Under the pieces are notes generated by a model. It searched no databases and was not told where the DNA came from. It worked only from the letters and a program-made list of their open reading frames with translations. From contig OZ251500.1 of the NCBI GenBank assembly GCA_965242755.1, forward strand, positions 2,625,339 to 2,689,338: a DNA stretch of 64,000 bases, given 5' to 3'. Shown piece after piece: positions 15,930-60,509 of the stretch. The position numbers and the translations under genes are program-made. The DNA comes from Dehalococcoidia bacterium (GTDB taxonomy: Bacteria; Chloroflexota; Dehalococcoidia; Lucifugimonadales; Australimonadaceae). Position 1 is the stretch's first letter. Each line of letters begins with the position of its first letter.

Positions 15930-16082
15930 ATGATTCTCCTCAAGGCATGCGCCCACTGCGGCGGCGACGTTCTGTGCAGGAAGGGCATGGACGGCATCGA
16001 GTGCCGGTGCCTCCTGTGCAGCCGCGCGCTCGACCTGAAAACCGCCGCCGCCCTCATCCAGCAGCGCAAGACCGCTGCCTAG
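15930..16082 (+). CDS. Hypothetical small zinc-ribbon protein (50 aa)
   Basis: ATG at 15930 is preceded by AAAGGAGG. Has CxxC...CxC..C spacing (CAHCGG...ECRCLLC). The upstream part of the track ORF lies in REP repeats. Confidence 0.45.
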   Translation: MILLKACAHCGGDVLCRKGMDGIECRCLLCSRALDLKTAAALIQQRKTAA

Positions 16083-16373
16083 CCCGGCTCCCCCAGGGAG
16101 CCAACGACGAGAGCCGGCGCAAATGCGCCGGCGTTGCGGCGTATGGGCGTTTCTCTCGATGTTGACTTGCCGCGACGCGCCGTATACGCTTGCGGGCGAT
16201 GCGGAAGCGCGTTTGGAAAATCGTCGCGGCGGCGCTGCTCTGCGGGTGCCTTGCGCTCGCGGGGACAATGGCGCTCGCCGTCGCCGGCCTGCTCGACGTC
16301 GGCCCGACGGCGCAGGCGCAAGAGAGCGGCGGGGAGGGGCACCTTGGTGCTCGGCGGCTTTAGGTAGACCGTC

Positions 16374-17617: not shown

Positions 17618-17688
17618 ACCTGGCCATCATCTCAATCTTGCGGATCGTGGCGACGGCGCCGCCACACTGCGCCAGACGGTAAATTAGC

Positions 17689-18918
17689 ATGGTTAGCGTC
17701 AAAACCTGCGGGCTCATTGCGGCGCTTTTCCTGCTAGCGGCATGCATCAACACGCCGTCGCCAGCCAATTCGCCCACCAGCGAACCCACGCCTACCCTTT
17801 TGCCTTCCGGTGACTTCCTGCCCACCATTTCGCCTATGCATGAACTTCCTTCATCCTTCAGCGAAGCGACCACGCTTAGCGCCGGCGAATTCCATACCTG
17901 CGCGCTCCGTCCGGGCGGATATCCTGTGTGTTGGGGCTGGGATCTGTACGGGCAATCTTCGCCTGCAGCGCCTCATAAGGCGCAGAGCGTTGCGGCAATT
18001 ACTGCAGGAGGAGCGCATACGTGCATGGTTTTTTCAGATGATTCATTTTTCTGCAACGGCCCTTATTATTATGCTTACGCTTCGCGCCCCGGAAGGTTTG
18101 GGCATTATCGTCAATGGCCCGGAGACCCGCAACCGTTGGAAATCAGCACGCCGCCTAGCAGTCAACGGTTTTTCACGGTGAGCAGCGGCCGCAACCATGC
18201 GTGCGGCATCCCGCTTCCCCCTGGTTCGGATCCATCGGATCCGAAGGTAATCTGTTGGGGCGGGAATTCGCATGGCGAAGCGGCTCCGTACTTCTATATG
18301 GAAGGAATAAAAGCGGTAAGCAGCGGCGGGGATTTCACTTGCGCGCTGCGTTTCTCCGACAGCAAGCCGGTGTGTTGGGGTGAGGCGTACTGGGCGTATA
18401 GCCGAATAGTTGACGGCCATTTTGATCGTTCCTCTGAGCCGCTTCGCTGTCCGCCGAGGAACATCAGGGTTATCAGCCCTTTGTGCGATGAAGCCTTGGA
18501 ACTGACGGGGCCTGGCAGCCCGGAGTATCCTCCCGATGACGAGCATTTCGGGGCTATCAGCAGCGGCGGGTCTCATGTCTGCGCGCTGCGTCTCAAAACC
18601 GATGCTCCGGTCTGTTGGGGATCTAACGCGTGGGGTCAAGCGTCGCCGCCTGAGGACGAGCGATTCGCGGCCATCAGCAGCGGCAGCTTTCATACCTGCG
18701 CGCTGCGATTCGACGGGACTACGGTGTGTTGGGGCGACGACCGCTACGGCCAGGCGTCGCCGCCTGAGGGCGAGCGGTTCGCTGTCATCGACGCCGGTGG
18801 GGGGCATACTTGCGCGCTGCGGTTCGACGGGACTCCTGTTTGCTGGGGGATAGACGGTCACGGCCAAGCGTCGCCGCCTGAGGGCGAGCGTTTCGCGTTG
18901 TCCTTAGGGAGGAGCTGA
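17689..18918 (+). CDS. RCC1-repeat (regulator of chromosome condensation-like beta-propeller) lipoprotein
   Basis: Lipobox LLAAC. At least six repeats of GGxHxCAL(R)...PVCWG(x)xxxGQ(A)SPP. Confidence 0.85.
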   Translation: MVSVKTCGLIAALFLLAACINTPSPANSPTSEPTPTLLPSGDFLPTISPMHELPSSFSEATTLSAGEFHTCALRPGGYPVCWGWDLYGQSSPAAPHKAQSVAAITAGGAHTCMVFSDDSFFCNGPYYYAYASRPGRFGHYRQWPGDPQPLEISTPPSSQRFFTVSSGRNHACGIPLPPGSDPSDPKVICWGGNSHGEAAPYFYMEGIKAVSSGGDFTCALRFSDSKPVCWGEAYWAYSRIVDGHFDRSSEPLRCPPRNIRVISPLCDEALELTGPGSPEYPPDDEHFGAISSGGSHVCALRLKTDAPVCWGSNAWGQASPPEDERFAAISSGSFHTCALRFDGTTVCWGDDRYGQASPPEGERFAVIDAGGGHTCALRFDGTPVCWGIDGHGQASPPEGERFALSLGRS

Positions 18919-20726
18919 TGGTTCACATCATGCGAATGTATGCGTTGGCGGGCTGCATCGCGCTGCTGGGAGCGCTGGCTTGCGGCGGCGGGGAGCAGGC
19001 GCCGCAAGCGTCGGACTTGCCTTGCGCGAGCGAGGATGCGTCCTGCGCTCCGCGGGACGTGAGCGGTGTGGATGTCATTGGCGGGGGCGCATCGCATGGG
19101 GCGGCGTTTGGCCTGCCTCCGGACGCGCCTAGCGTGGAAGGCGTGCTGGAGAAGGGGCCCCGCGAGTCCGGCCAAGCCCCTGTGCATATCGCAATCCGAG
19201 GCATAGCTCAATCCGAGTCTGTCCGATGCGACTGGCACAGCGTCGTCCGGACCTTGGATTACCGCGAGAATGAAATACGCTTCTGGTTGGCCATTGACGA
19301 GGACGAGGCGTTGCCGGCTCCAAGCGAAGTGGAACGACGGCTAATGTCGCATGTGAACGGAATGCGCGCCGACCACCGGCCTGAGTGGACGGCTTGGGCC
19401 TCCGCGCTCGCCAATGGAGGCGTTTCTTCCGAGTACAACAGGCTGAAATGCTATGCTGACTACGCCGTTCAAGGCTATGTTCTCGGCAACGGACCGCGCG
19501 CGCTTACGGTGGCTTATGACAGACACGAGCGAGGCCCCTCCTACGGTCTGTACAGTCGCGCGCATGCGGCCGGGGCTTACCGCGGGGCGGCCAAACTCGG
19601 CGAAGCGGAGCATGCGACTGCGCTGGCGGAGATGGCTTATGAAGCCGCAGCGGAATTGAAGCAGGAGATTGGGTCTCGTCAGAGCGTCGTGTTTCTCACG
19701 CCAATGGGCGCGTTCGGCCCTGTCGCAGTCGAAGCATGGCAAGCAGTTGAGCAGTGGGATTTGCAACGAGCCGATGACGGGACGGTCAATGCCGTTCGCT
19801 ATGGCGCTCGAGAGGGGGATAGTGAGCAAACGCAAACGCTTGTCAACCTGCAAAGGCGCGTTACAACGGCGGCGGGAAGCGACGCTTTCGCGGGGAAGCG
19901 CATCGCCAACGCGAGCGGACTCGCGCAGTACTACCGAGACATCGGCGCCTACGGCGACATCACGCCCGGCGACGGCGAAACGGCGACGTTCACGCCGGCG
20001 CAGCCGCCTCCGAAGTGCGGCTCCGCGGTGGCGGATCACGCGGCGAATCCGGGCCTTGTTCAGGACTGCATGGCGCTGCTCGCGGCGAAGGACGAGTTGC
20101 GCGGAACGGGGGCGCTCAACTGGAGCGAAAGCCGCGCCATCGCCGATTGGGACGGCGTGAAAACGACGGGAACGCCCGCGCGAGTGACGCAGTTGCGAAT
20201 CGTGGACGGACGCCTAACCGGAACGCTCCCGGCGTCGTTGGGCAAACTGCCCGCGCTGACGCGGCTGTTTCTGAACGGGGGCGAGTTGACAGGCGCGATC
20301 CCGCCGGAGTTGGGCGACCTCGCGGCGCTGGAGCAGTTGCGCCTGAACGACAACAAGTTGACGGGGAGCATCCCGGCGGAGTTGGGCGGCCTAGCGAATC
20401 TGCGCGAGTTGTGGATTTCGGACAACGACCTCACCGGGTCAATCCCGTCGGAATTAGGGAGCCTGAGCAAGTTGGAGGTCTTAAGTCTGCTGAACAACGG
20501 CCTCACGGGCTCGATCCCGGCGGAGTTGGGAAGCCTCGGCAAGTTGACGCAATTGAGCCTAAGCAACAACGCGCTCAAGGGAAGCATCCCTGCGGAGTTG
20601 ACGAACTTGCGGAGCCTAGCCTGGCTGCGCTTAGGCGGCAACGCCCTAACAGGCTGCATCCCATCGCCTCTGCGAAGCGTCGCCGACCAAGACATCCACC
20701 GCCTCCGCAACCTCGCGGAGTGCTAG
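18918..20726 (+). CDS. Lipoprotein with unknown N-terminal domain and C-terminal plant-type leucine-rich repeats
   Basis: Signal/lipobox LLGALACGG. The C-terminal ~200 aa has an LRRNT-like cap (DCMALLAAKDEL..ALNWSE...W.GV) plus eight 24-residue repeats LxxLxLxxNxLTGSIPAELGxLxx. Start overlaps the RCC1 stop (TGATG). Confidence 0.85.
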   Translation: MVHIMRMYALAGCIALLGALACGGGEQAPQASDLPCASEDASCAPRDVSGVDVIGGGASHGAAFGLPPDAPSVEGVLEKGPRESGQAPVHIAIRGIAQSESVRCDWHSVVRTLDYRENEIRFWLAIDEDEALPAPSEVERRLMSHVNGMRADHRPEWTAWASALANGGVSSEYNRLKCYADYAVQGYVLGNGPRALTVAYDRHERGPSYGLYSRAHAAGAYRGAAKLGEAEHATALAEMAYEAAAELKQEIGSRQSVVFLTPMGAFGPVAVEAWQAVEQWDLQRADDGTVNAVRYGAREGDSEQTQTLVNLQRRVTTAAGSDAFAGKRIANASGLAQYYRDIGAYGDITPGDGETATFTPAQPPPKCGSAVADHAANPGLVQDCMALLAAKDELRGTGALNWSESRAIADWDGVKTTGTPARVTQLRIVDGRLTGTLPASLGKLPALTRLFLNGGELTGAIPPELGDLAALEQLRLNDNKLTGSIPAELGGLANLRELWISDNDLTGSIPSELGSLSKLEVLSLLNNGLTGSIPAELGSLGKLTQLSLSNNALKGSIPAELTNLRSLAWLRLGGNALTGCIPSPLRSVADQDIHRLRNLAEC

Positions 20727-33356: not shown

Positions 33357-34457
33357 CTACAGCCGCTCGATGATGAGATCGGTCATATGCTCCGTGGTGG
33401 AGAACTCCGCGCCGGGAGGAGCGAGGTCCGCGGTCCGATGGCCGTCGCTCAGGGCGCGCTCGACGGCGGACTCGAGCGCGGCGGCCTCCTCGGCGAGGCC
33501 GAATGAGTATCTCAGCATAAACGCCGCGCTGAGGATGGAGCCGATGGGGTTCGCCTTGCGCTGCCCCGCGATGTCGGGCGCGCTGCCGTGGCTGGGCTCG
33601 TAGAGGCCGCGAATCTTGCGGGGCTTGCCGCGCGCGTCCGCGCCCGGCAGCCCTGCGAGGCTCGCCGACGGCAGCATGCCGAGCGACGCCGAGAGCACCG
33701 CCGCCTCGTCGGAGATGATGTCCCCGAACATATTCTCCATCACCATCACGTCGAAACTCGCCGGCCGCGTGATCAGCAGCATCGCGCAGGAGTCCACCAA
33801 CTGATGCTCCAACTCGACATCGGGATAGTCGGCGGCGACCTCGTTGGCGACCTCGCGCCAGAGGCGGGACGATTGCAGCACATTGGCCTTGTCGACGGAG
33901 GTGAGTTTGCGCCGGCGCCCGCGCGCGAGTTCGAATCCGACGCGCAGTATCCGCTCGATCTCCTTCTCGGAGTAGAGGAGCGTGTCCACGCCTTTGCGCC
34001 CCGCCTTCGTCGCCCAGCGCTTCTTGGGCGGCGCGTAGTAGAGGCCGCCGGTGAGTTCGCGGAGAATCACCATATCCGCGCCGCGGACGCGCTCGTCCTT
34101 GAGCGGGCTCGCGCCCTCCATGCCGGGGAAGACCTTGACCGGGCGGATGTTGGCGTAGAGGCCGAGCGCCTTGCGGAGCCCGAGTATCGCCGCCTCCGGG
34201 CGGACGGGCGCGTCGTCCCACTTGGGCCCGCCCACCGCGCCGAACAGCACGGCGTTCGCCTGCCGGGCGGCGCGGACGGTCTCGTCGCGCAGGGGCGTCC
34301 CGTAGGCGTCTATCGCGCCGCCGCCAACGACGTCCGTCCGGTAGCGGAACGTATGCCTCCAGCGCGCCGCGACCGCATCGAGCGCGCGTTTCGCGGCCTC
34401 CGTAACCTCGGGCCCGACGCCGTCGCCGGGGAGAACCATGATGTCGAATGTGGGCAT
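33357..34457 (-). CDS. leuB: 3-isopropylmalate dehydrogenase
   Basis: MPTFDIMVLPGDGVGPEV..., RELTGGLYY, NMFGDIISDEAA, SHGSAPDIAG. Confidence 0.95.
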   Translation of the reverse strand: MPTFDIMVLPGDGVGPEVTEAAKRALDAVAARWRHTFRYRTDVVGGGAIDAYGTPLRDETVRAARQANAVLFGAVGGPKWDDAPVRPEAAILGLRKALGLYANIRPVKVFPGMEGASPLKDERVRGADMVILRELTGGLYYAPPKKRWATKAGRKGVDTLLYSEKEIERILRVGFELARGRRRKLTSVDKANVLQSSRLWREVANEVAADYPDVELEHQLVDSCAMLLITRPASFDVMVMENMFGDIISDEAAVLSASLGMLPSASLAGLPGADARGKPRKIRGLYEPSHGSAPDIAGQRKANPIGSILSAAFMLRYSFGLAEEAAALESAVERALSDGHRTADLAPPGAEFSTTEHMTDLIIERL

Positions 34458-34524
34458 TTTGCGTTACCTCGCTCTTGCGAAAGAGCCGCCTCATCGTAAG
34501 GGGCCGGGGCGCGACGGCGCAAGG
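34352..34524. repeat. Direct repeat DR1: native leuB 5' end (first ~35 codons) plus ~65 bp upstream
   Basis: Near-identical to 37499-37665 and 39221-39385 (same orientation). Confidence 0.9.
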
Positions 34525-34534: not shown

Positions 34535-35425
34535 CTAGGTGGGAGAGGGCATCTTTGCCGTCAGGTCCTTAAGGACGGCCTCTGTCTCATCGATGACCTC
34601 TTTTATCAACGCGAAGGCGCCTATACGTCTGTCGTAGTGTTGTATTCCGAATTTCCCATTCCGTTTTCCTTTGATTGCCTCCAACCCATCCGATGGGGAA
34701 TCAGGGCGGGCTGGGTACCGGGTATAAGCCTCATGCGGAAACGTAACGGCACTGAGCACGAACAGCCCTACGAAAGCATCCACTCGTTTGAAGTACCAAC
34801 CCACTTGCCTTCTTGTGATTGAAGCAGTCACGAGCCGTCCGGTGGCACCCGATGAATTATTCCGATGGATGCTGATAATCAACTTAGCGAATTCATAGGT
34901 GCTTTTGTGTTGGAAATTAGGGAGTTTTCTGGTAACCTCATGAGCGAGCATTTCCGCAGAACCGGTAGACGTATCCGCGAATGTGAATTTCTGAGAGCGA
35001 GGGAAACGCTTGATTTCCGCGGCGCGTTTGCCATTCCGCGTTTCGCGGACGGAGAGAAGAGGGCGGACGGCTTCAGGGGGCATGACCGCTAGTCGCGCCC
35101 ATTGCTCCGGGTCGTTGACAAATCTATCTAGCGTATCGTATGAACTTTCACTAATAAGCTGATTAATGGCTGGAGTTATATCGGCTTTCTCTCTCACCTT
35201 TGCGGCAAACCTAAGGAACACCTTCAGCGGCCTGTGGCGGATTCCGAAAACGTCGTCAAACGAGTCCCCCCACTCGAGGAGCAGCGCCTTGCACGCCTTC
35301 TCGACCGACTGCTGGATTGTGTACAGCGCGAAGACGGGGTCACTCGCGGCAAACGCACGCGCAGCCTTCGCGTCGGCCAACGAGCGTTGGAACCACAATC
35401 CCACGTATTCCGGCATGTTGACCAT
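34535..35425 (-). CDS. HEPN-superfamily protein (large, ~296 aa)
   Basis: From MVNMPEYV: WFQRSLADAKAARAF...ALYTIQQSVEKACKALLLEWG...RHRPLKVFL matches the HEPN N-terminal helices, and the C-terminal ...PHEAYTRYP matches the HEPN RYP region. GC is markedly lower (~50%) than the surroundings. The 5' extension in the track is probably non-coding. Confidence 0.5.
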   Translation of the reverse strand: MVNMPEYVGLWFQRSLADAKAARAFAASDPVFALYTIQQSVEKACKALLLEWGDSFDDVFGIRHRPLKVFLRFAAKVREKADITPAINQLISESSYDTLDRFVNDPEQWARLAVMPPEAVRPLLSVRETRNGKRAAEIKRFPRSQKFTFADTSTGSAEMLAHEVTRKLPNFQHKSTYEFAKLIISIHRNNSSGATGRLVTASITRRQVGWYFKRVDAFVGLFVLSAVTFPHEAYTRYPARPDSPSDGLEAIKGKRNGKFGIQHYDRRIGAFALIKEVIDETEAVLKDLTAKMPSPT

Positions 35426-35881
35426 GCTATCAGAACGGCAACCAGCGGAGCGTCGAATCCACCGCTGCGAGGGCCGGGCTAGGGAAGCGCGACTGGCGGA
35501 GCGTTGCGGAGACGGCTCGTATCCGAATGGCTGGCCTCCTTTCGTTTCGGTCGGGTCCCGCCGGGATGAGGGCGCACCCCGCCCCATCCCCATCTGGTCA
35601 TTATCCACCGTAATCCCGCGCCTGCAGGAGCGCAACCCCTGCGGAACCGAATTTTGGGCCAATTTCCGGCGGTTCCGCGCGCGCCGCCACCGAACGCTAC
35701 GAACGAACACGAACGAACGCTACGAATTCTCGCACTTTCCCGCCTACGCGGGAATGACGATGCGCCTCTGCGTCAGGGGGGGCGGAGCGCCCTGCACCCG
35801 TCTTGTGACGCTATCGCGCCGGTGGTTCTTGCGTGGTGGTCTCTGCGTAGGCGGGCATGGGCGCGGCGCGGATTCCATCCA

Positions 35882-37321
35882 CTACCCGCCCCCGGAGATA
35901 GAGAAGTGCGTGCGGCGCGCTTTCGTCTCCTCCCGCAGTTGCTCAAGGGGAATGATGCGCGAGTTCTTGACGCTGTTGCAGTTGCCGCACAGGAGTTGCA
36001 GGTTGGCGTCGATGTCGGGGCCGTCCGCCGACGTGGGATGGACGTGGTCTATGGTGAGCGCGTGGATCGGCATGGGCCATTCGCAGCCGTTGCACTTGCC
36101 GCCCTGCGCGGCGTGGAGCACGGCCCTGATGTTCGCGGAGCGGCGAGCGCCGACGGGCGCCGGCGGCAAATCGGTGCGCTTCGGCGCATCCATGCGCCGC
36201 GTCACGTCGCCGACGAACCCGGAGAACGGGCGTCGCGCGCCATGCAGGTCGCCGGAGGCGATTTGCACTTCCTTGGCGAGGCGCTCGACGACGAGGTCGT
36301 AAGCCTTTTCGGAGAGGTCTACCCCTATCCATTCTCGCCCCAACTTCTCCGCCGCGACGCAGGTGGTGGCGCAGCCGCAGAAGGGATCAAGCACGAGGCC
36401 GCCCTCGTTGGACGACGCCCTAATAATGCGCTCCAGCAGCGCGATCGGCTTCTGCGTCGGGTAGCCGGTGCGCTCTTTTCCGCTCGCTATGCTGATGTCG
36501 GTCATAATGTCGGGGAGAGGCTTGCCCTTGGCCTCGTCCAAGTACACTTTGCGACGGGGAGTCGAGCCGCGGGACGGCCAGTAGATTCGCCCGTCGGCAT
36601 CCAATTCCTCCAAGCGGCGCATCGGGAACTTCCAGACATCCTTGATGCCCCGCCAGGTGTACTCGTAGCCGCCGCCGGTAAGCGTGCGAGCGTGAAGAGG
36701 AGAGGTGGTGAAACTGCCCCTCTCATCCTGATAGCGGTAGTTTTTTCGCACCACATCCTCTCCCAGCGGCTGGTATTGCGTGTTCCAAACCGCGTTGTGA
36801 GGGGCGTAGAAGAGCAACCTATCGCCGACGCGCCCATACTTGCGCGCGTCGTTGTGGGAGCCGTAGCGCTGCCAAACAATTTCATTCCTGAACTGCGATG
36901 CTCCGAACACGGAGTCCATGACGGCTTTCAGGTAATGGACAGCCGTGTCGTCGCAGTGGAGGTAGATGCTGCCCGCGGGTTTCAGGACGCGACGCATTTC
37001 TATGAAACGCACCGCCATATAGGTGAGGTAGCCCTGCATCGCCGGGCCGGAAGCGAAACCGGACGCCCTGATCGCGTAATGGAGCGCCGGGTTGCGCTCC
37101 TCGATCTCGTCAACCCACTCCTCTTTGACATCGTCGAGCGTCCAGGCGTCTTTGAAAGCCGCCCCAGCGGAGATGGACCCGACGGGAGCGCTCCACTGCT
37201 TGCCGGAGTTAAAGGGCGGGTCGAGGTAGACGAGGTCGACGGTCGAGCTGTTCATGCCGCGCAAGACGTCGAGGTTGTCGGCGATGAAGAGGGTGCGGTT
37301 GGCTATCGTATTCTCGGCCAT
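35882..37321 (-). CDS. Beta-class N6A/N4C DNA methyltransferase fused to a C-terminal HNH endonuclease domain
   Basis: Motif IV comes first (VYLDPPFNSG), then TGYPTQKP and motif I VLDPFCGCATT (PF01555-like order). The C-terminus CNGC...IDHVHP....NLQLLCGNCNSVK is an HNH motif. Confidence 0.85.
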   Translation of the reverse strand: MAENTIANRTLFIADNLDVLRGMNSSTVDLVYLDPPFNSGKQWSAPVGSISAGAAFKDAWTLDDVKEEWVDEIEERNPALHYAIRASGFASGPAMQGYLTYMAVRFIEMRRVLKPAGSIYLHCDDTAVHYLKAVMDSVFGASQFRNEIVWQRYGSHNDARKYGRVGDRLLFYAPHNAVWNTQYQPLGEDVVRKNYRYQDERGSFTTSPLHARTLTGGGYEYTWRGIKDVWKFPMRRLEELDADGRIYWPSRGSTPRRKVYLDEAKGKPLPDIMTDISIASGKERTGYPTQKPIALLERIIRASSNEGGLVLDPFCGCATTCVAAEKLGREWIGVDLSEKAYDLVVERLAKEVQIASGDLHGARRPFSGFVGDVTRRMDAPKRTDLPPAPVGARRSANIRAVLHAAQGGKCNGCEWPMPIHALTIDHVHPTSADGPDIDANLQLLCGNCNSVKNSRIIPLEQLREETKARRTHFSISGGG

Positions 37322-37498
37322 GTGGATCTTCTCCGTCAGGTTGCGCGGGCATTGTGCGCCGCCGGGCGGCGCCGCGCAAGGGGCGCGTGTCCGATTGGGG
37401 GATGGATTCGCGTAGGCGAGAGGGCGGGGCCGGCACGCCTACACGGGCAGCTGCGTCGTGTTTGGGGTACCCCTACTCCCGGGCGCGCACGAAATTAC

Positions 37499-37665
37499 GC
37501 CTCCATCGCGCCGCGACCGCATCGAGCGCGCGTTGCGCGGCCTCCGTAACCTCGGGCCCGACGCCGTCGCCGGGCAGAACCATGATGTCGAATGTGGGCA
37601 TTTTGCGTTGCCTCGCTCTTACGAAAGCCGCCTCATCGTAAGGGGCGGGGAGCGACGGCGCAAGG
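37499..37665. repeat. Direct repeat DR2: leuB' 5' fragment copy
   Basis: Encodes MPTFDIMVLPGDGVGPEVTEAAQRALDAVAAR then diverges. Preceded by the shared junction GGGCGCGCACGAAATTAC (37481-37498). Confidence 0.9.
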
Positions 37666-37872
37666 GGCGTATGGCGGCGTTGTCATTCCGCGTAGGCGGC
37701 ACCTAGCCCACCGGGGGCGCTCCATCCTTCGTAATCGTCGCCCGCCTACTGACCGTCATTCCCGCGTAGGCGGGAATCCAGGAACCCGCGTAGGCCGCTG
37801 CGGGCGCTCGACCTTCCAGCGCCTCATCATCGCCCGCGTAGTCAGGCTCCTCTTCCGCGAAGAGGAGCGGCG

Positions 37873-39132
37873 CTATCGCGCCGACTGGATGTCCCGCCTA
37901 CGCGGGCAGGACGGTAGATTACGCAAAGGTCTCGTTGAGGAATGCCCGGAGTATGGCCGGCTGCGGGAGTTCGGCGAGCGGCCTCCGTATGCGCGGTCGT
38001 GGTCGCGCGCCTCTTTGACGATGAGGAGTTCGTGGGAGGCTTTGACGTGGTGGTTCGTTCCGTTCTCGATGCGGTTCTTGCCGATGCGCGTTTCGCCTTG
38101 CCCAAGCGTGTATTGCCATTCGACCTCGATGATCTTGCAGTCGGCGTACCACTCGCGGATCGGTTCGCAGTCGTTGTAGGAGAGGACGAATCCCCCCTCG
38201 TGGCGGCGCAGGAGGTCGCGCAGGAGGTCGTGGCGGAAGTTCGCGTGGTGGATGGGGAAGTTGCGCTGCGGGTAGATGCCGCGGAACATTTTGCTGTCGC
38301 CGTCGAGGTAGTAGGGCGGGTCGCAGTAGAGGAAGTCGCCGGAGTGGGCGGGGATCGTGTCCTCGAATCCGCCCTGCGTCACGGAGAGGGTTGGGCAGGA
38401 GAAGCGCTCCACTTTGGCGACGAGCCGCTCGTAGCGGACTTCGTCCTCGTAGATTTTGGACATCCAGCCGAGGAAGCCTGGCCCGTAGGCGAGGTTGTGG
38501 TTGAACCAGTAGTGGGCGGCGAGTTCGAGGGGGTCGGCGATGGGGCGCGTTCGCGTCCAATGCTCCTTGAGGCGCTGCTTGATCTGCCGGTAGCGCTGCT
38601 GGGTCGGCTCCCATTGCCTGATGCGGTCGGCGAGCGCTTTGGGGGCGCTCAACTGGACTTCCCAGTAGTTGGTCAGGACGTCGAAGACGTCGTAGCCCTG
38701 CACGGGGACGCCGAGTTCTCTGGCGCAGGCGATTTCGACGGAGCCGCCGCCGATGAAGGGGGAGACGACGCGGGAGAGGCGGCTAGGGAGGTTTTCGACG
38801 ACGTGGCCGACGGCGAGGCTTTTGCCTCCGGCGTAGCGGAGGGGGAGGCCGTTGTATCTGCCGTATTTGTAGCGTCCGGCGCTGCGGAGGGAGGCGAGGA
38901 AGGCGTCGCGTGTGCCGCGTCCGTCGAGGGCGGCTTGTCCGCGCAAGGGCTTGTAGGCGGCGCGGGGCTCGGCGAGCGCCAGAGCGTCCCGCACTGCCGG
39001 TGACAGGCGAGACGGCCATTCGCCAGCGTATGCGGGCTCGACGTGGTCGACGACGTCCTCGACGACTTGGTCCTCGTCGCGCAAGGCATCGTTCTCTCGC
39101 AAGCGCACCTTCAAGCGTTCAATATCCACCAT
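37873..39132 (-). CDS. Dam-like (D12 class) N6-adenine DNA methyltransferase, apparently orphan
   Basis: LRYAGGKSLAV...VVSPFIGGGSVE (motif I region) and FLYCDPPYYLDG (DPPY). ATG at 39132. The 3' end reads into a REP/IS-IR repeat, so the exact C-terminus is uncertain. Confidence 0.8.
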   Translation of the reverse strand: MVDIERLKVRLRENDALRDEDQVVEDVVDHVEPAYAGEWPSRLSPAVRDALALAEPRAAYKPLRGQAALDGRGTRDAFLASLRSAGRYKYGRYNGLPLRYAGGKSLAVGHVVENLPSRLSRVVSPFIGGGSVEIACARELGVPVQGYDVFDVLTNYWEVQLSAPKALADRIRQWEPTQQRYRQIKQRLKEHWTRTRPIADPLELAAHYWFNHNLAYGPGFLGWMSKIYEDEVRYERLVAKVERFSCPTLSVTQGGFEDTIPAHSGDFLYCDPPYYLDGDSKMFRGIYPQRNFPIHHANFRHDLLRDLLRRHEGGFVLSYNDCEPIREWYADCKIIEVEWQYTLGQGETRIGKNRIENGTNHHVKASHELLIVKEARDHDRAYGGRSPNSRSRPYSGHSSTRPLRNLPSCPRRRDIQSAR

Positions 39133-39220
39133 GCGCCGTACCTTATATCCAACGCCCGGCCAACGCAACCATGCGCCCAGCCCCGTGCGCGCCTACCCCC
39201 ACGGGCGCGCACGAAATTAC

Positions 39221-39385
39221 GCCTCCAGCGCGCCGCGACCGCATCGAGCGCGCGTTGCGCGGCCTCCGTAACCTCGGCCCCGACGCCGTCGCCGGGCAGA
39301 ACCATGATGTCGAATGTGGGCAATTGCGTTGCCTCGCTCTTGCGAAAGCCGCCTCATCGTAAGGGGCGGGGCGCGACGGCGCAAG
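39221..39385. repeat. Direct repeat DR3: leuB' 5' fragment copy
   Basis: Encodes MPTFDIMVLPGDGVGAEVTEAAQRALDAVAAR. Preceded by the same junction GGGCGCGCACGAAATTAC (39203-39220). Confidence 0.9.
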
Positions 39386-39539
39386 CGGCGGGTGGCGGCG
39401 GTTGGCACCGGTAGGTTCCCGCTTTCGCGGGAATGACGTGGCGGCGGGATGGCTTGGGGACGGGGCGCGGGGCACCCCGTCGTGGCGCTGTCGCGCCGAC
39501 TGGATTCCCGCCTGCGCGGGAATGACGGAGGTTATGCAA

Positions 39540-39945
39540 AGGTCTCGTTGAGGAATGCCCGGAGTATGGTCGGCTGCGGGAGTTCGGCGAGCGGCCTCCG
39601 CAGGCGCGGTCGTGACCGCGCGACTCTTTGGCGATGAGGAGTTCGTGGGAGGCTTTGACGTGGTGGTTGGTTCCGTTCTCGATGCGGTTTTTGCCGATGC
39701 GGGTTTCGCCTTGCCCAAGCGTGTACTGCCATTCGACCTCGATGATCTTGCAGTCGGCGTACCACTCGCGGATCGGTTCGCAGTCGTTGTAGGAGAGGAC
39801 GAATCCCCCCTCGTGGCGGCGCAGGAGGTCGCGCAGGAGGTCGTGGCGGAAGTTGGCGTGGTGGATGGGAAAGTTGCGCTGCGGGTAGATGCCGCGGAAC
39901 ATTTTGCTGTCGCCGTCGAGGTAGTAGGGCGGGTCGCAGTACCAG
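39540..39945 (-). pseudogene. 5'-truncated copy of the Dam-like methyltransferase (C-terminal ~135 aa only)
   Basis: YCDPPYYLDGDSKMFRGIYPQRNFPIHHANFRHDLLRDLLRRHEGGFVLSYNDCEPIREWYADCKIIEVEWQY... is near-identical to 37930-38335. Homology stops abruptly at ~39945. Confidence 0.85.
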
Positions 39946-40622
39946 TAGCACTTGCCAGGTGGGGTTGTAGGCGCTGTCGAGGATCGCTTTCTTGTAGTCG
40001 CCGTCGGGGGCGACGGCGATGGGGATGACGATGTAGCCGAACTTCTTGCCGTCGGCTTTCCGCATCGCGCGGCCGACGGCTTGGACGACGTCGACGACGG
40101 AGCGTCGGGGGAGAGGAAAAGGGCTCCGTCGAGGTCGGGCACGTCGACGCCTTCGGTGAGGCATCGCGCGTTGGAGAGGATGCGGCATTCGCCCTCCGCG
40201 TCGGCATTGATCCACTACAACTTCTCGGCGCGGCGCATCGAGTTCATCGTTCCGTCGACGTGGTCCGACGTGTAGACAAGGGCGTCGTGGATGCCGTTGC
40301 GCTCCTAGTCGTCGGGGGCGTAGAACTTGCACTGGATCGCGGCGAGGCCGGCGCCGCTCCTGAGTTCGGCGACGATGTCGACGCCCGTGTCGGGGCGGCC
40401 GGGGTTGCCCGGCCACTCGCTCCAGAGCCAGACGTTGGAGAATGTCCGCGAGTAGAGCGCGTCCTGCTGGAAGTACCGCTTGACGAGCCGCTCGAAAGCG
40501 GCGCCCTTGGCGGGCTCGCTCGTCGCGTCCTCGCGGATTTCCGCGAGGACATCCCCGAACGTCCGTCGCCGCGGAGGGGCGGCGCACGTATTGTCGGCTT
40601 GCGTCATCATATCGCCGGGCAT
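39946..40622 (-). pseudogene. Remnants of a COG4889/type ISP-like helicase-nuclease (N-terminal Mrr-type nuclease fragment + helicase motif VI fragment)
   Basis: The ORF 40305-40622 N-terminus (FERLVKRYFQQDALYSRTFSNVWLWSEWPG...TGVDIVAEL...AIQCKFY) ends in a stop. A different frame holds VDVVQAVGRAMRKADGKKFGYIVIPIAV...YNPTWQVL (helicase motif VI region). Intact homologues are several kb, but only ~0.68 kb remains. Confidence 0.6.
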
Positions 40623-54209: not shown

Positions 54210-57095
54210 ATGAGCGAAACGCCAACGCCAGCCGACGGCGCGCGCCGCCCGGAGATCGCGACGCAATTCCAATTCGGAGCATCCCTGCTGCGCGTCCATC
54301 CGCTCGACGCTCCGGTCGTCGCGCTTGCGGCGCGCATCGAGGAGCGCGGCGGCGACCGCGCCGTCCTCTCCGCCGTCGGCGCCGTGAAATTCCACGGCGA
54401 CCGCGTTCTCGGCGCGTTTCACGCCGACGACGAGCAGGCCGTCGCGAGGCTGGCCGGTTTTATCGGCGATGCCCCGCTCGCGGCGCATGGGCTCGGCGGC
54501 GCGCTCGCGCAGGCGGGGCTGGACGCCGCGTTCGGCGCAGGGCTATGGGACGCGCGCGAGTTGGCCGCGCTGCTCATTCCCGCAAGCGCCGACGACGCGC
54601 TGCCGCAGTTGACGGCGCGGCTCGGCTTGGAGTGGCCCTCCCCCGGAGACACGGGAGGCGCGGCGTCCACCGGAGGCGCGGCGCCCCCCGGAGGCGCGGC
54701 GCGGACGGCGGACGCCTCCGGCGTGGTCGCCGACGCGCATGCCGTCCGCGCCGTCCATCTTGCGCTCGTGGAGCGGGCGCGGATGCTCCCCGTCGGCGCG
54801 CTCCGCCGCCTGGCCGACCTGCTGCGGCGCGCCCGAAGCCCGCTCGCCGACCTGATCGCCGCGCTCGCCGACGCCCCGACCGCGCTCGGAACGGGGCCCA
54901 TCGGCGCGCTCGACGAGGCGGCGATCGCTAGCCGGCTGGAGCGCCCCAGATCGCTCGGAACGCCGAATCCGCCCAAGCCGTTCGCCCCCGGCGAGGTCGG
55001 CGCGCTCCTCGCGGACGGCGGCCCGTTCGCCCGGCGCTTCCCCCGCTACGAGCCTCGCGCCGAGCAGGCGGCGATGGCGGAAGCCGTCGCCCGCGCCCTC
55101 GACTCCGCAATCGGGGACGACGGCCCGCGCCACCTCCTCGTCGAAGGCGGCACCGGCATCGGCAAGTCCGTCGCCTACCTCCTCCCCGCCGCCTTGCACG
55201 CGCTCCGCAACAACGTCCGCGTCGTCATATCCACCAACACCATCAACCTGCAAGAGCAGTTGATCGCCAAAGACATTCCCGACCTGCTGAACGCGCTGCG
55301 CGCGGAGCCCGGTCTGGACGCGTCCCGCTTTCGCTGCGCGCAACTCAAGGGCAAGGCGAACTACCTGTGCATCCGCCGCTGGGAGGCGCACGCCAACGGC
55401 GACGCGATGTCCCCCGACGAGGCGCGCCTGCTCGCCAAGACGCTCGTCTGGCTCGACGAGACCCGTACCGGCGACCGCGCCGAACTGCGGCTCGAAGCGC
55501 CCGAAGCCGCCTCATGGGAGCGGATGAGCGCGAGCGGCTTCTCCGCCTGCGCCGGTGCGCGGGAGGGCGCCTGCTTCTACCGCCACGCCCGCGAGGAAGC
55601 CGCCGCCGCCCACATCCTCGTCGTCAACCACGCCCTCCTCCTCTCCGACCTGCAAGTCGGCGGCTCCCTCCTGCCCGACTACGACTTCCTCATCGTGGAC
55701 GAGGCGCACAACCTGGAGACGGAGGCCACGCGCCAATTCGGGTTCCGCATCTCGCACGCGACGGTCGAGGACCTCATCGAGCGGCTGGGCGGCGTGATCC
55801 ACGGGTTCGGCCAGGCGGCGCGGGCGGGCGCGATGGAGCAGGCGCGCAAGGAGAGCGCCGCCCTCCGCTGCGACGAGGCGCAAACGCCCCTCTACCGCGT
55901 CCGCGACGATTGGGCGCGCCTCATGGCCGGCCTCGCGGAGTTCGCCGCCTCCCAGCGCGGAGAGTCCGACGACGGCGAACTCCGCATCACCCGCTCCGAG
56001 CGCGCCCAACCCAAATGGTCGGAACTCGACGTCGCATGGGCGGATTTCGAGCGAAGCGTCAACGAGGCCGCCGAGCGGGCCGCCGCCCTCCTCCGCGAAA
56101 TGGAGAGCCTGCCCGCCGGCGCCGCGCCCGCCCTGGAGCAGTTGAAAGGCGAGTTGACGGAGTGGATAACTGATCAGAACGAGGCGCGGGAGAAGGCGCG
56201 GGCGTTCGTATCCCAGCCCGACGACCAGACCGTCTACTGGATCGGACGCGGCGCGAACCTCTCCTTGAACGGCGCCCCGCTCGACGTCGCGCCGCGCCTG
56301 CGCGAGGAACTCTTCGACGCGAAGCAGGCCGTCGTCCTCACGAGCGCCACGCTGACCGTGGGCGGCGGCTTCGCGCACGTCCGCGACCGGCTCGGCGTCG
56401 AAGAGCCGGAGGAGGTCGCGCTCGGCTCGCCGTTCGACTATCGCAACGCCGCGCTCCTCTGCATTCCGACCGACGCGCCGGAGCCGGGCGACCCGCGCTA
56501 CGCCGACGCCGTCGCTCGTATGCTGGACGAGATCGCGCGAATGTCCGGCGGGCGCGCGATGGCGCTCTTCACTTCCCACGCCTCCCTGCGCGCCGCGGCG
56601 GCGAGGCTCCGCAAGACGCTCCCGAAGCGCGGCATCGGCGTGCTCGCGCAGGGCCCGGACGGCGCTCCCCAGCAACTGCTGGCGCGATTCCGGCGCAACC
56701 CGCGCGCCATCCTCCTCGGCACGGCGTCGTTCTGGGAGGGCGTGGACGTCGGCAACGCCGCCCTCAAGACGCTCGTCCTCGCGCGGCTGCCCTTCAACGT
56801 CCCCACCGAGCCGATCTTCGCGGCGCGCTCCGCCCAATACGAGCGGGATGCGTTTATGCAATACGCCGTTCCCCAGGCCGTGCTGCGCTTCCGGCAAGGC
56901 TTCGGGCGCCTCATCCGCGGCAAGGGCGACCGCGGCGTCGTCGTCGCGCTCGACAGCCGCATCGCGACGAAAGCCTATGGGCGCGTCTTCCTCGAATCCA
57001 TCCCGCCCGCGACGACGCTGCGCGCCCCCTTCCACGAACTCGCCCCAGCGATCCGCCGCTGGCACGCGGACGGGGACGAGGCGCCGCTCGGCTAG
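54210..57095 (+). CDS. dinG: DinG/XPD-family ATP-dependent DNA helicase with degenerate N-terminal exonuclease-like domain
   Basis: VEGGTGIGKSVAYLLPA (Walker A), four Cys between motifs I and II (Fe-S), VDEAHNLE, SFWEGVDV, and QGFGRLIR. Confidence 0.85.
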   Translation: MSETPTPADGARRPEIATQFQFGASLLRVHPLDAPVVALAARIEERGGDRAVLSAVGAVKFHGDRVLGAFHADDEQAVARLAGFIGDAPLAAHGLGGALAQAGLDAAFGAGLWDARELAALLIPASADDALPQLTARLGLEWPSPGDTGGAASTGGAAPPGGAARTADASGVVADAHAVRAVHLALVERARMLPVGALRRLADLLRRARSPLADLIAALADAPTALGTGPIGALDEAAIASRLERPRSLGTPNPPKPFAPGEVGALLADGGPFARRFPRYEPRAEQAAMAEAVARALDSAIGDDGPRHLLVEGGTGIGKSVAYLLPAALHALRNNVRVVISTNTINLQEQLIAKDIPDLLNALRAEPGLDASRFRCAQLKGKANYLCIRRWEAHANGDAMSPDEARLLAKTLVWLDETRTGDRAELRLEAPEAASWERMSASGFSACAGAREGACFYRHAREEAAAAHILVVNHALLLSDLQVGGSLLPDYDFLIVDEAHNLETEATRQFGFRISHATVEDLIERLGGVIHGFGQAARAGAMEQARKESAALRCDEAQTPLYRVRDDWARLMAGLAEFAASQRGESDDGELRITRSERAQPKWSELDVAWADFERSVNEAAERAAALLREMESLPAGAAPALEQLKGELTEWITDQNEAREKARAFVSQPDDQTVYWIGRGANLSLNGAPLDVAPRLREELFDAKQAVVLTSATLTVGGGFAHVRDRLGVEEPEEVALGSPFDYRNAALLCIPTDAPEPGDPRYADAVARMLDEIARMSGGRAMALFTSHASLRAAAARLRKTLPKRGIGVLAQGPDGAPQQLLARFRRNPRAILLGTASFWEGVDVGNAALKTLVLARLPFNVPTEPIFAARSAQYERDAFMQYAVPQAVLRFRQGFGRLIRGKGDRGVVVALDSRIATKAYGRVFLESIPPATTLRAPFHELAPAIRRWHADGDEAPLG

Positions 57096-57099
57096 CGGC

Positions 57100-57310
57100 A
57101 TGCCCGGAACGCAGCCGCGCACGCTAACCCGGGGAAACCGCCCTGCCCGCGTAGGCGGGAATCCAGGCGGCGCGAGGCGCCAAGACGGGGCGTTGCGCCC
57201 GTCCCCATGCCATCCCCCAGGCTCCGTCATTCCCTCGAAGCGGGAACCTACTGGAGGCAATCTGCGCCCTCGCCCTTGACCGCGTAAGCGGGAACCTACT
57301 GGGAACGACC
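57100..57310. repeat. REP-like palindromic module cluster
   Basis: CCCGCGTAGGCGGGAATCCAGGCGGCGCG, CATTCCCTCGAAGCGGGAACCTACTGG and CGCGTAAGCGGGAACCTACTGG. Confidence 0.8.
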
Positions 57311-57466
57311 AAGCGGGGACGCGCGGGTTGCCCCCGCCACGCAACTGCGACATCCGCCCCTTGCAGCGTCCCCTTGCCCGCCCCTACGGTGGAACGAGGA
57401 TGCGGCTTGTGCTATCCTAACCACGGAACGCTTGCGTCGGAGCGTAGCGCAAAGGAGGATGCATCG

Positions 57467-58165: not shown

Positions 58166-59710
58166 CTAACCTCCGGCAAGCGAGGACTGATACGACTGCG
58201 CGACGCGCCGGTCGTACTCCGCTTGCGCCACCGCCGACGCTCGCGCCAAGTTGACGAGCGGGCCGTAGTTCCTCCCCAGCGTCGTGTTGCGGTCGCGCAA
58301 CTCCTGCAGCGTCATCTTGTGCTGCTTCTCCCGGTTGCACGGCTCGCACAATATCGAGCGGTTCGGCAGTTCGTTGGAGCCGCTCGACCAGCGCGACTCG
58401 CGGTGGTCAAGGTGAAAGTAGCGCTCGTCGTTCTGCGGCGGATTGAATCCGCAGCCCCAGCAGTTGTAGCCGAGCGCGTCCAGCAGGAACCGCTTCATGA
58501 TCGGTTCGGGGATTTTCGACGCGGGAACCTTGTAGCGGCGCTCCGGCAGCGGCTTGATGTCCTGAGCGGGAACGGGGTCTTCGTCCGTCCGCTCCGGCAA
58601 ATCGTTGGGCGAGCGCAAGACGACGTCGGCGGCGGCGATGAGCGCGGGGCTTTCGCCTTGCCCTTCGCCGTTCACCGAGTAGCGGAACTTGCCGAACTGG
58701 CGGCGCAGCACGGTGAGCGCGCGCGGGCTGATGTCGCAGGCGATCCACTGCCGCCCGTTGCGCTCGGCGGCGACGGGGACGTAAGCGCAGCCCGCGAAGC
58801 AATCCAGCACGACGTCGCCGGGGTTCGCGCTCGCCTTGACGATGCGCTCCGCGAGGGCGACGGGCTTCTGCGTGGGGTAGCCGGTGCGCTCCTTCGCCTG
58901 CGAATTGAGGTAGGAGATTTCCCACACGTCGCGCATCGCCTTCTCGCGCGTCGTGTCGTCGGTGTAGGTCTACTCGATCTTGCCGGCGGGCGTGAACGTC
59001 GTGCGCCGACGCCCTTTGTGCTGGGATTTCTCGCTGTAGGGCTCGGTGAGCCGGTTGAAATTCGTTTGGGCGGAGTCCTTGGCGTAGAAGTAGATGGTGT
59101 CGTGCATCCTCTGGAAGTGCTTCGTCGCCCCCGTCCACCGCTGGTATGACCAAACCAATTCGTTCCGCAGGTTCGGCGAACCGAATATGGAATCCAGCAT
59201 TATGCGGACATAGGAGTTGACCGCGTAGTCGCAGTGGAAATAGAGGCTGCCCGACGGCTTCAAGATGCGGTGAATCTCGATGAGCCGAATGGACATATAG
59301 GCGAGGTACGCCGCGTGCGCCTCGTCGTGGGCCGACCGGGTCGCCTCTATCGTCTTGGAGAGGGCCGGCCAATCCGAGTTCATCTTGGCGATCCAGTCCT
59401 CGTGGACGTCCTTGTCCCACCGCCAAATGTCGCTGTAGCGGGAGTCCGCCCCGTCGGGCCAAACGACGCCCGCCGCCTCCGCGTCCACGGCGTTGCGGAG
59501 CCCCCAGCCCGCCAGCATCGCGCGCTCGTTGTCCAACTCCGCCTTCGTCAGGGGAGGCTTCAGCGCGCCCTTCCACGTCTCGTTCTTGGCGAACGGCGGG
59601 TCGATGCACACGAGGTCGATGCTCTCGTTGTCGAGCCGGCGCAGCAGCGACAGGTTGTCCGCGATGAAGAGGTTTCTGTTCAGCGGGTGGGGCGCCGCCA
59701 TTGCGCTCAT
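58166..59710 (-). pseudogene. Second beta-class DNA methyltransferase::HNH fusion, interrupted by a single in-frame TAG (58970-58972)
   Basis: ORF 58970-59710 (IDPPFAKNE..., LKPSGSLYFHCD) and ORF 58166-58936 (TGYPTQKP, VLDCFAGCAY, HNH CWGC...LDH...ILCEPCNREK) are in the same frame. They are colinear with the intact homologue at 35882-37321. Confidence 0.75.
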
Positions 59711-59891: not shown

Positions 59892-60407
59892 CTAGCGGCG
59901 CGCCCGGAACGCAGCCGCTCGCTCCGCTCGGGCGTCGGCCCGTTCCCAGTAACGCCTGTTCCTGTTGTTCCTCGGAGGCGGAGGAGCGTCGCGGGGCAAC
60001 TCGCGGTTGGCCTTCTTGAGAAGAGCCAGCAGTTCGGCGCCGTCCTTGCGCCGAATCTTGATCTCCTCCATATCGTACCCATCGGCGTAGAAATTGACGC
60101 GCAGGTTGTTCACGCTGTCGAACAACAGCCGGATTCTGTCGTCGCGCATCAGGTTGGCGATATGCCCGATGATGACTCCGGCGTCCGCGTGCGCCGCATA
60201 CGGCCAGTTGCGCGGCGCGGCGACCGTCTTCAAGGCGTGGGCGACCGCCCCCCAGACCTTCTCGGAGGCTTGCAGCCTGTCGCCGTTCTTCACCATCAAG
60301 CCGGAATGCTTGTAGAGAGCGTCCCGATGCTTGCCGTGCGGGGTGGTCGGCTGCTCGACGTCGCCTACCTCAACAACCCTTACGGAGTCTCGCGCTCCTT
60401 CGACCAT
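59892..60407 (-). CDS. PaREP1-like (HEPN-superfamily) protein
   Basis: NGDRLQASEKVWGAVAHALKTVAAPRNWPYAAH......LLFDSVNNLRVNFYADGYDMEEI matches the PaREP1/PaREP8 pattern (AsEK.WgA....K..A...gw...sH......A..LH.NFY). ATG at 60407 with GAGGAGG SD. Confidence 0.6.
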   Translation of the reverse strand: MVEGARDSVRVVEVGDVEQPTTPHGKHRDALYKHSGLMVKNGDRLQASEKVWGAVAHALKTVAAPRNWPYAAHADAGVIIGHIANLMRDDRIRLLFDSVNNLRVNFYADGYDMEEIKIRRKDGAELLALLKKANRELPRDAPPPPRNNRNRRYWERADARAERAAAFRARR

Positions 60408-60509
60408 CCTGCGCCTCCTCATCACCAGAATACCACGAAAGCGGCGATGAATCGGGTAATCTACCGCCCTTAGCCGTTGCGGCCGCGCCCAGAGACAGAC
60501 AAGAGCCCA

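Follow-up and report, generated by a model that had tools for sequence, protein, structure and literature searches.

The stretch of DNA analyzed here (64,000 nucleotides of contig OZ251500.1 from a Dehalococcoidia bacterium, referred to as the window; GC content 0.674) contains two genes in which a DNA methyltransferase (MTase) of the beta class is fused to an HNH nuclease domain (MTase::HNH), each of them next to a gene for a small protein of a HEPN-clan family. At locus 1, the MTase::HNH gene MT1 is followed on the same strand by the gene HEPN1; at locus 2, the MTase::HNH gene MT2 adjoins a gene of the PaREP1 family. The coordinates of all features are collected in table 1.

The protein encoded by MT1 matches N6_N4_Mtase (PF01555) over residues 28–345 (E = 1.9e-43, 149.4 bits against a Pfam cut-off of 26.7) and HNH (PF01844) over residues 410–455 (E = 6.9e-10, 39.4 bits against a cut-off of 21.4), and the motifs DPPF, TGYPTQKP, and DPFCGCATT are all found. 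A preliminary description of this DNA, which had named a 479-amino-acid methyltransferase with these motifs and a C-terminal HNH domain, was accurate in this respect. Motif IV (DPPF, residues 34–37) comes first and the S-adenosylmethionine motif DPFCGCATT last (FCGCAT at residues 314–319), which is the order of the beta class. In an alignment of six MT1 homologues DPPF, FxGxG, and CxxC..H..N..CxxCN are unchanged, and the HNH residues C410, C413, H426 (catalytic), N440, C445, C448, and N449, with their two CxxC pairs, are invariant. The closest relatives with a solved structure are CcrM, DpnA, MboIIA, RsrI, and one N4C methyltransferase. By motif order and profile match MT1 is classed as a beta-class N6A/N4C DNA methyltransferase, and its C-terminal part as an HNH (beta-beta-alpha-Me) nuclease domain; PADLOC labels the MTase part MTase_II or MTase_III and nothing beyond. 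DNA homology between the window and the related loci L001 and L005 begins at ∼37407–37409 despite their differing chromosomal contexts, which delimits an upstream region that travels with MT1.

HEPN1 was correctly described before as the next gene on the same strand, encoding a protein of ∼296 amino acids with a low GC content (0.539). Its start was set at the ATG at 35425, although the mechanically called open reading frame (ORF) extends to a GTG at 35710, because GATAGCATGGTCAAC is conserved among the relatives. Close homologues are rare (nine in 5.8 billion proteins), and a profile search of 1.8 billion representatives retrieved 197 distant relatives of 280–370 amino acids, the wider family comprising ∼200 representative clusters. 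The distant relatives match HEPN1 in two blocks (residues ∼5–100 and ∼205–290), with ∼150 residues between the two conserved blocks of HEPN1. PF05168 is matched by 33 of 40 family members, six of ten members scanned singly exceed its 22-bit cut-off (23.7–36.2 bits), and the family profile matches the solved HEPN proteins 1wol (E = 8.7e-9), 1ufb (E = 2.6e-5), and, weakly, 1o3u in the PDB. Because family members match PF05168 and the family profile matches solved HEPN proteins, the N-terminal ∼65 residues are taken to be HEPN-like, and by profile match at the family level HEPN1 is assigned to the HEPN superfamily, PF05168 type (HEPN-T clade). An AlphaFold2 model (predicted local distance difference test, pLDDT, 86; predicted template modeling score 0.86) is mostly helical with two short strands, and its best HEPN match, the sacsin HEPN domain 3o10, is weak (E = 3.2, TM-score 0.33–0.36 on the target). 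An earlier model built from nine sequences (pLDDT 67.5) was set aside as too poor.

Nine residues (Q39, E42, K46, H64, H231, R236, Y237, Y264, and G269) are invariant in a 40-member alignment of the HEPN1 family, the consensus of which reads QQSxEKxxKAL ... GH ... PHExxxRYPAxPDxP ... GxQHY. Eight polar residues (E42, K46, H64, H231, R236, Y237, H263, and Y264) are invariant or nearly so in a family that extends down to ∼21% identity and are a possible active site. HEPN1 contains H231-x4-R236 and R236-x5-D242, where D242 occupies the position expected for a histidine; the second of these recalls HEPN-T variants "with conserved D in place of H" (Anantharaman et al., PMC3710099), as a resemblance and not as a test. 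The ratio of nonsynonymous to synonymous substitution rates (dN/dS) of 0.39–0.46, from comparisons other than those with L004, corresponds to moderate purifying selection. No ATPase domain was detected in HEPN1 by Pfam, NCBIfam, or PADLOC; the family is not represented in PADLOC or NCBIfam, Pfam recognizes half of it, and IMG/VR contains no match to it.

The genomic context of the HEPN1 family was examined by a profile scan of genome contigs with a 13-sequence alignment. Distant relatives are found next to a DUF2813/SMC-like ATPase with a UvrD helicase, GmrSD-HNH, a ResIII helicase, pieces of Type ISP/Eco57I enzymes, and a NERD nuclease, a company of defense genes that supports a defense role for the family. 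The pair of DUF2813/SMC-like ATPase and UvrD helicase presumably resembles Gabija. The small ORFs adjoining distant relatives were assigned to no Pfam family.

HEPN1 lies immediately downstream of an MTase::HNH gene at all four loci with visible context (the window, L002, L004, and L005; L004, which is identical to L010, is a Dehalococcoidia chromosome from a metagenome-assembled genome, MAG). These are four different chromosomal sites: leuB in the window, purQ/purL in L002, a position after hydantoinase genes in L004, and one before a cupin gene in L005. The MTase::HNH partners in L002, L004, and L005 are 76, 44, and 40% identical to MT1 and 37–43% identical among themselves, and three MTase lineages, at most 44% identical, accompany HEPN1, which itself is 76–78% identical among the window, L002, and L005. 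At the DNA level, the HEPN modules of the window and L002 are 86.9% identical while their MTase genes can be aligned in patches only, and no alignment with L005 is obtained for the central part of the MTase gene (36479–36804, the presumed target-recognition region). Because HEPN1 is conserved while the partner MTases diverge, its link to MTase::HNH genes has outlasted changes of partner. Locus 1 is a real, conserved, and mobile two-gene cassette, consisting of an MTase::HNH gene followed by the gene of a rare HEPN-like protein, and is limited to Dehalococcoidia-type genomes as far as seen. The same comparison, together with the HEPN homology, rules out HEPN1 as the cognate restriction enzyme of MT1, since it stays conserved while the MTase, including the target-recognition region, is swapped.

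A trace of an older partner is preserved within the cassette. The ∼260 nt on the 5′ side of the HEPN1 start are conserved across the window, L005 (2706–2963), and L002 (∼5760–6000), and their translation in one frame finishes with (D/V)STLR(W/R)LPF followed by TGA TAG. In L004, the most divergent relative, the MTase::HNH gene itself finishes with RRELRNNPHTHGFGPDAQSVLRRLPF-TGA TAG at the same place, and the HEPN gene begins at a GTG 12 nt past that stop codon. The L002 leader and the L004 C-terminus align from end to end (14 of 31 residues identical, E = 1e-7 in a single comparison), both ending in LPF and a stop codon. On the simplest reading of these alignments, the ancestral state would be a tight MTase::HNH-HEPN1 operon as in L004, and other MTase::HNH genes would have replaced most of the old gene in the lineage of the window, its 3′ end surviving as the HEPN1 leader. 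The 12-nt spacing suggests that the genes were once co-expressed, and the relic argues for an original functional coupling of the pair. HEPN1 now has a conserved promoter-like element of its own. The leader retains an open frame of ∼28–55 codons, which has an ATG behind an AAGGAGG-like site in L005 and L002 and an ATT in the window; this frame might act as a regulatory upstream ORF.

Table 1. Features of locus 1, the leuB island, and locus 2 (positions in the window)
Feature	Coordinates	Strand	Basis
leuB′ repeat copy A, native; bounds the cassette	34347..34523	.	Repeat analysis
HEPN1, 296 amino acids; N-terminal ∼65 residues like the first half of HEPN (PF05168), remainder family-specific	34535..35425	-	Profiles, AlphaFold2 model, dN/dS, GC
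HEPN1 leader, derived from the 3′ end of a former MTase::HNH gene; terminates ...LRWLPF-TGA 5 nt before the ATG	35426..35682	-	Conserved in L005 and L002; matches the L004 C-terminus
MT1, intact beta-class DNA methyltransferase with C-terminal zinc-ribbon HNH nuclease, 479 amino acids	35882..37321	-	PF01555, PF01844, motif conservation
Upstream region traveling with MT1; promoter-like TTGCGC ... ACAAT and ACGGAG Shine-Dalgarno-like site	37322..37409	-	DNA homology to L001/L005
leuB′ repeat copy B, 94% to A; opposite boundary of the cassette	37491..37667	.	Repeat analysis
D12-class (Dam-like) adenine methylase, intact, 431 amino acids, without nuclease partner	37873-39168	-	Between copies B and C
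leuB′ repeat copy C, 81% to A over 137 nt; bounds the next unit with the D12 methylase	39213..39389	.	Repeat analysis
Left copy of 30-nt direct repeat (27/30); overlaps the stop codon of the DinG-like helicase gene	57089..57118	.	Repeat analysis
MT2, second MTase::HNH, nonsense-inactivated (Q247*)	58166..59710	-	Homology to MT1, in-frame TAG 58970-58972
176 nt upstream moving with MT2; limit of homology to the intact orthologue L097	59711..59886	-	blastn
Right copy of 30-nt direct repeat; overlaps the PaREP1 stop codon	59889..59918	.	Repeat analysis
PaREP1-family (HEPN-clan) protein gene, next gene upstream, resident, outside the MT2 unit	59892..60425	-	PF05942, family profile

Genes of the MTase::HNH type are very common (at least 8,000, every candidate that was scored being significant). 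Among the best 120 candidates, 112 hold both PF01555 and PF01844, and two have a T5orf172 domain in place of HNH. A 72% relative of MT1 stands in tandem with a second MTase::HNH gene in L098 (4001–7866; 510 and 608 amino acids), and a 66% relative in L099 comes after a TIR gene of the ThsB-like type, which separates it from a PaREP1 gene located 2.9 kb upstream. A fragment of 75 MTase::HNH residues (L099, 7276–7536) was observed a few kilobases from the intact copy. Such tandem copies and fragments suggest insertion hot spots and turnover. The 39 immediate neighbors of 29 metagenomic MTase::HNH genes are assorted (acetate kinase, glutamate dehydrogenase, FtsH-type protease, and transposases, among others), Radical SAM, seen three times, being the sole recurring family, and no HEPN family is present among the 25 of 49 matched neighbor families listed. 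Phage homologues match the MTase part alone: one of 1,097 records covers at least 80% of the query, and three of the best 80 IMG/VR loci reach the HNH domain. Since the locus is chromosomal, between leuB and lpdA, and relatives in phages and IMG/VR almost never reach the HNH domain, the alternative raised in the preliminary description, a phage packaging-associated HNH, was rejected. In a literature search, no paper, experimental descriptions included, was found for a beta-class MTase-HNH fusion.

The second MTase::HNH gene is homologous to the first, as had been proposed, at 31% identity over the full length (E = 1e-67) and not at about half, and its frame is broken. An in-frame TAG (CAG, Gln, in the orthologues L096 and L097) splits MT2 into ORFs of 246 and 256 amino acids. 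The N-terminal fragment clusters at ≥90% identity with many intact proteins of 514 amino acids. The TAG may be a real allele and not a sequencing error, because one other contig in the MT2 protein cluster shows a similar split (224 + 256 amino acids). The HNH domain of MT2 scores 19.0 bits, below the PF01844 cut-off, and the HNH residues are nonetheless present. Both intact orthologues (L096 and L097, 89–92% amino acid identity) adjoin a Radical SAM gene at a site unlike that of the window, have an R3H/AAA gene (L096) or mutS-yacP (L097) upstream, and lack a PaREP1 neighbor. The MT2 DNA is 88–89% identical at this different chromosomal site; according to blastn, window positions 59886–58165 correspond to L097 4828–6546 (88%), a unit that spans 176 nt on the 5′ side of the start codon to the stop codon and ends short of the PaREP1 stop codon (59892–59894). 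The 30-nt direct repeats flank a segment of 2.8 kb (57119–59888) that holds MT2, and the DinG-like and PaREP1 genes on either side are convergent; repeats of this kind would be left by an insertion between two genes already resident there.

The PaREP1 assignment of the neighbor was confirmed (PF05942, 35.1 bits against a cut-off of 24.4; the family profile matches the PaREP1 structure 2q00/2jpu in the PDB with E = 6.7e-4). Proteins of the PaREP1 family possess the H and do not conserve the R (PMC3710099). The near-invariant histidine of the family (LHxNFY, residue 109, 60099–60101) is an arginine in the PaREP1 protein of the window, and P0130, the representative of its 95%-identical cluster, has a histidine at this residue. 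The closest PaREP1 orthologue (L006, 84%) keeps the divergent OGG neighbor as in the window without an MTase::HNH gene, and the three 61% paralogues of the L006–L009 set have no MTase::HNH gene within 5 kb. HEPN1 and PaREP1 were also considered as homologues of each other, with no detectable relationship. Locus 2 is a dead copy of a separately mobile, normally solitary MTase::HNH gene that landed beside a resident PaREP1-OGG pair; it is a chance adjacency produced by an insertion accident and not a second instance of a module. Two further observations concern insertions beside MT2 genes. Within the 2.8-kb segment, two overlapping ORFs in different frames (57747–58159, forward strand) look like a frameshifted gene for a DUF2335 membrane protein (PF10097, 19.5 bits, below the cut-off). 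Beside the orthologue in L097 there is a 4-kb insert (6629–10417), not present in L096, that encodes a 357-amino-acid protein of unknown type, a HerA/DUF87 ATPase, and a 359-amino-acid protein with a faint methylase match and that may be another defense-type module.

Locus 1 lies upstream of leuB (33357–34457, reverse strand) in an island between leuB and lpdA. The spacer between these two genes is partitioned into insertion units by three direct repeats (leuB′), each made up of the first 111 nt of leuB and ∼66 nt upstream of it, and the MT1-HEPN1 cassette is placed exactly between copies A and B (insert of ∼3.0 kb, repeats of 177 bp), with no integrase or transposase in the insert. L002 has, after its HEPN module and directly ahead of purL, a stretch (L002 6898–6981) of leuB upstream sequence that continues into the opening 18 nt of the leuB ORF (ATGCCCACATTCGACATC); the cassette has therefore moved along with a piece of the leuB flank, and from the same stretch it seems to carry a host promoter fragment. 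The repeat pattern in the window looks like the insertion of a restriction-modification (R-M) unit with a long target duplication and a later amplification by way of the repeats. One repeat unit beyond the intact D12 methylase gene, its 3′-terminal 300 nt recur at 96% identity (39529–39828), because of which the D12 unit is considered to have been duplicated in tandem and then shortened. Joined to this truncated methylase, and followed by lpdA, are the stop- and frameshift-riddled remains of a large gene (39830–40600, reverse strand), with an Mrr-like PD-(D/E)XK N-terminus (...GVDIVAELRSGAGLAAIQCKFY...), a piece similar to helicase motif VI, and a C-terminal piece (GKKFGYIVIPIAV...), which resemble a decayed restriction gene of the nuclease-helicase(-methylase) kind. 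Scans of the island for consensus promoters, terminators, and Rfam families gave nothing useful, and the element CCCTTGCGCC-N-TACGAT, considered as a common promoter of the window, was dropped as it is confined to the leuB′ copies.

A palindrome similar to repetitive extragenic palindromes (ATTCCCGC-N4-GCGGGAAT) has 10 matches in the window against 0.03 expected by chance (positions 15172, 15239, 27238, 35736, 37758, 39415, 39504, 54080, 57143, and 62917); the copies gather at the edges of inserted units, and L001 and L005, two related contigs, also contain the palindrome in abundance. The cassette in L002 adjoins a lipoprotein with RCC1-like repeats, and a homologous repeat protein is encoded at ∼17.7–18.9 kb of the window. 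The stretch with the lowest GC content of the window (0.55–0.61) is 16001–19000.

The locus-1 cassette is probably a small defense module. Its MTase domain would mark host DNA by methylating a specific motif, and the fused HNH domain would cut unmarked DNA, thereby restricting invaders or promoting the spread of the gene itself. HEPN1 would be a second effector, most likely a toxin of the nuclease type, that acts together with the MTase::HNH protein or is held in check by it, as proposed for R-M-linked HEPN proteins of the PrrC kind; by this analogy we infer an RNase activity and a role in abortive infection. We see about an even chance that this reading is right as a whole, that is, an MTase::HNH with HEPN1 as second effector, descended from a tight operon, and an unrelated locus 2. 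Several results weigh against it. The four linked loci all come from one narrow lineage (MAGs of Dehalococcoidia/Chloroflexota), and the closest relative of MT1 (L001, 86% identity) stands alone, with smpB on one side and ABC-transporter genes on the other. MTase::HNH genes, which are abundant and mobile, usually occur singly and normally manage without a partner: neither the HEPN1 nor the PaREP1 family occurs within 5 kb of any of 80 metagenomic MTase relatives, 32 of which include the HNH part. Replacement of the MTase gene in place also means that the adjacency could be inherited and not re-selected. As for HEPN1, the protein scanned singly scores 20.4–20.8 bits against PF05168, under the cut-off of 22, and matches the N-terminal half of the profile alone; in nearly all family members the match is confined to profile positions 1–61 of 117 (two extend to 78–84). 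A profile of the C-terminal half matched nothing in the PDB, HEPN structures included, and Foldseek with the pLDDT-86 model found nothing significant in PDB or BFVD (no PDB match below E = 0.5). The canonical Rx4-6H motif is not present, with no histidine 5–7 residues past R236 in the family alignment. The HEPN-like call in the preliminary description thus stands for the N-terminal ∼65 residues at the family level, and not for the single-sequence score or for the rest of the protein, which is not tied to HEPN.

In the main rival, MTase::HNH genes are selfish units that mobilize themselves with a homing-like HNH domain while the methylase protects the carrier, and HEPN1 does not work together with the present MT1 and stays through replacement in place, acting alone in toxicity or defense or decaying. 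Solitary copies amid housekeeping genes fit this account, as do the MT2 unit of 176 nt plus ORF nearly intact elsewhere, the tandem copies and fragments, the displaced gene recorded in the HEPN1 leader, the separate promoter-like element of HEPN1, and the MT1 unit in L001 (∼110 nt upstream plus ORF), which lacks HEPN1. It is doubtful all the same, since HEPN1 has remained intact under purifying selection (dN/dS ∼0.4) in three lineages after the replacement and was never seen without an upstream MTase::HNH gene (4/4 loci), the ancestral spacing suggests former co-expression, and neither a target site for homing nor an empty allele was found. A further account, in which MTase::HNH genes form a large class of self-mobilizing "homing methylases" that invade chromosomes and displace one another in place and HEPN1, as a new kind of effector derived from HEPN (half a HEPN domain plus a novel His/Arg/Tyr-rich module), monitors the MTase::HNH protein and kills or arrests the cell upon its loss or inhibition, would make locus 1 a minimal addiction and abortive-infection cassette; we consider this unlikely. 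Also unlikely is a noncatalytic HEPN1, neither toxin nor RNase, that would serve as an adaptor or regulator derived from a HEPN domain, for example as a nucleotide- or nucleic acid-binding subunit tuning the HNH or the MTase domain. The missing Rx4-6H motif and the long separation of the two conserved blocks (∼150 residues) would suit such a protein, and PF05168-type HEPN domains include noncatalytic members and HEPN-T versions with altered motifs (PMC3710099); on the other side, the eight conserved polar residues look like an active site down to ∼21% identity, and distant relatives stand beside unrelated defense genes and not always beside MTase::HNH. The idea of the preliminary description, a general recurrent system of MTase::HNH plus a HEPN-superfamily protein with both loci as instances and a variable gene order, is largely refuted and appears very improbable. 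Both small proteins do belong to HEPN-clan families, PaREP1 is found near an MT1-type gene in L099 beyond the TIR gene, and a DNA methylase of some kind lies within 5 kb of several PaREP1 loci (with no genome-wide background count), but no relationship between the two proteins was detected, MT2 carries a nonsense mutation, its mobile unit ends before PaREP1, and neither the intact MT2 orthologues nor the PaREP1 orthologues and paralogues in L006–L009 repeat the pairing. The enrichment of HEPN neighbors expected for such a system is contradicted by the 80 metagenomic loci. What survives of the proposed functional pair is locus 1, with its four of four HEPN1 loci, the 12-nt spacer in L004, and the defense-gene company of distant relatives.

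If the mechanism proposed for the MTase::HNH-HEPN1 cassette holds, it would be a very compact defense or addiction cassette with a single modify-and-cut chain and an effector derived from HEPN. Independently of the mechanism, beta-class MTase::HNH fusions are abundant, usually stand alone, and show the behavior of mobile genes. As a caution for scans of this type, the two similar adjacencies in the window did not belong to one system; such neighbors arise by insertion accidents in methylase-rich genomes.

Several known systems share part of this organization. In single-chain R-M enzymes of Type IIC/IIG (Eco57I, MmeI, and BcgI) an N-terminal PD-(D/E)XK nuclease is joined to a gamma-class MTase. 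MT1 likewise combines a methyltransferase and a nuclease domain in one polypeptide, and judging from the domains alone one gene could modify and cut, whereas the MTase is of the beta class (PF01555) and the nuclease is a C-terminal zinc-ribbon HNH domain. Free-standing HNH homing endonuclease genes are a second system for comparison: MTase::HNH genes are similarly compact units (an ORF with a short stretch in front of it) that recur almost unchanged at different sites and occur in tandem copies, as fragments, and in the place of a resident homologue, and they differ in that the HNH domain is fused to a full DNA methyltransferase and the gene is chromosomal and not phage-borne. The cassette is mobile, low in GC, and made up of two genes with a possibly toxic HEPN-family protein, as are HEPN-MNT toxin-antitoxin pairs; unlike these, it has no adjoining MNT nucleotidyltransferase gene (the neighbors are MTase::HNH and leuB, purL, or other host genes), and HEPN1 lacks Rx4-6H and is more than twice the minimal HEPN size. 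The setting of locus 1 corresponds to R-M gene insertions with long target duplications (<20 kb, direct repeats >30 bp; Furuta, Abe & Kobayashi 2010, PMC2853133), with an insert of ∼3 kb, target repeats of ∼177 bp, neither integrase nor transposase, and leuB′ repeat units amplified in tandem. No empty-site genome was retrieved, so that the leuB′ repeats as a target duplication are unproven, and in contrast to those insertions the same leuB flank accompanies the cassette at the purL site of L002, which points to recombination through the carried flank and not to a simple duplication.

The closest parallel is the association of HEPN proteins with R-M systems. The PF05168-type (HEPN-T) clade clusters with R-M operons in genomes (Anantharaman et al. 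2013, PMC3710099), the paradigm of an R-M-linked HEPN protein being the anticodon nuclease PrrC within the EcoprrI type I R-M locus, and HEPN domains fuse to nucleases and helicases, not methylases (PMC3710099). At locus 1, too, the gene of a HEPN-superfamily protein adjoins functions for DNA modification and cleavage, and it would follow the same logic of a second-line effector. Unlike PrrC and RloC, the locus shows neither an ABC-ATPase domain nor the Rx4-6H motif, and type I hsd genes are absent from its surroundings; its partner is a single MTase::HNH polypeptide with both predicted activities in one chain, and HEPN1 shows the N-terminal half of the HEPN profile only, ∼150 residues ahead of its C-terminal conserved block. 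Locus 1 is a variant form of the known HEPN/R-M association.

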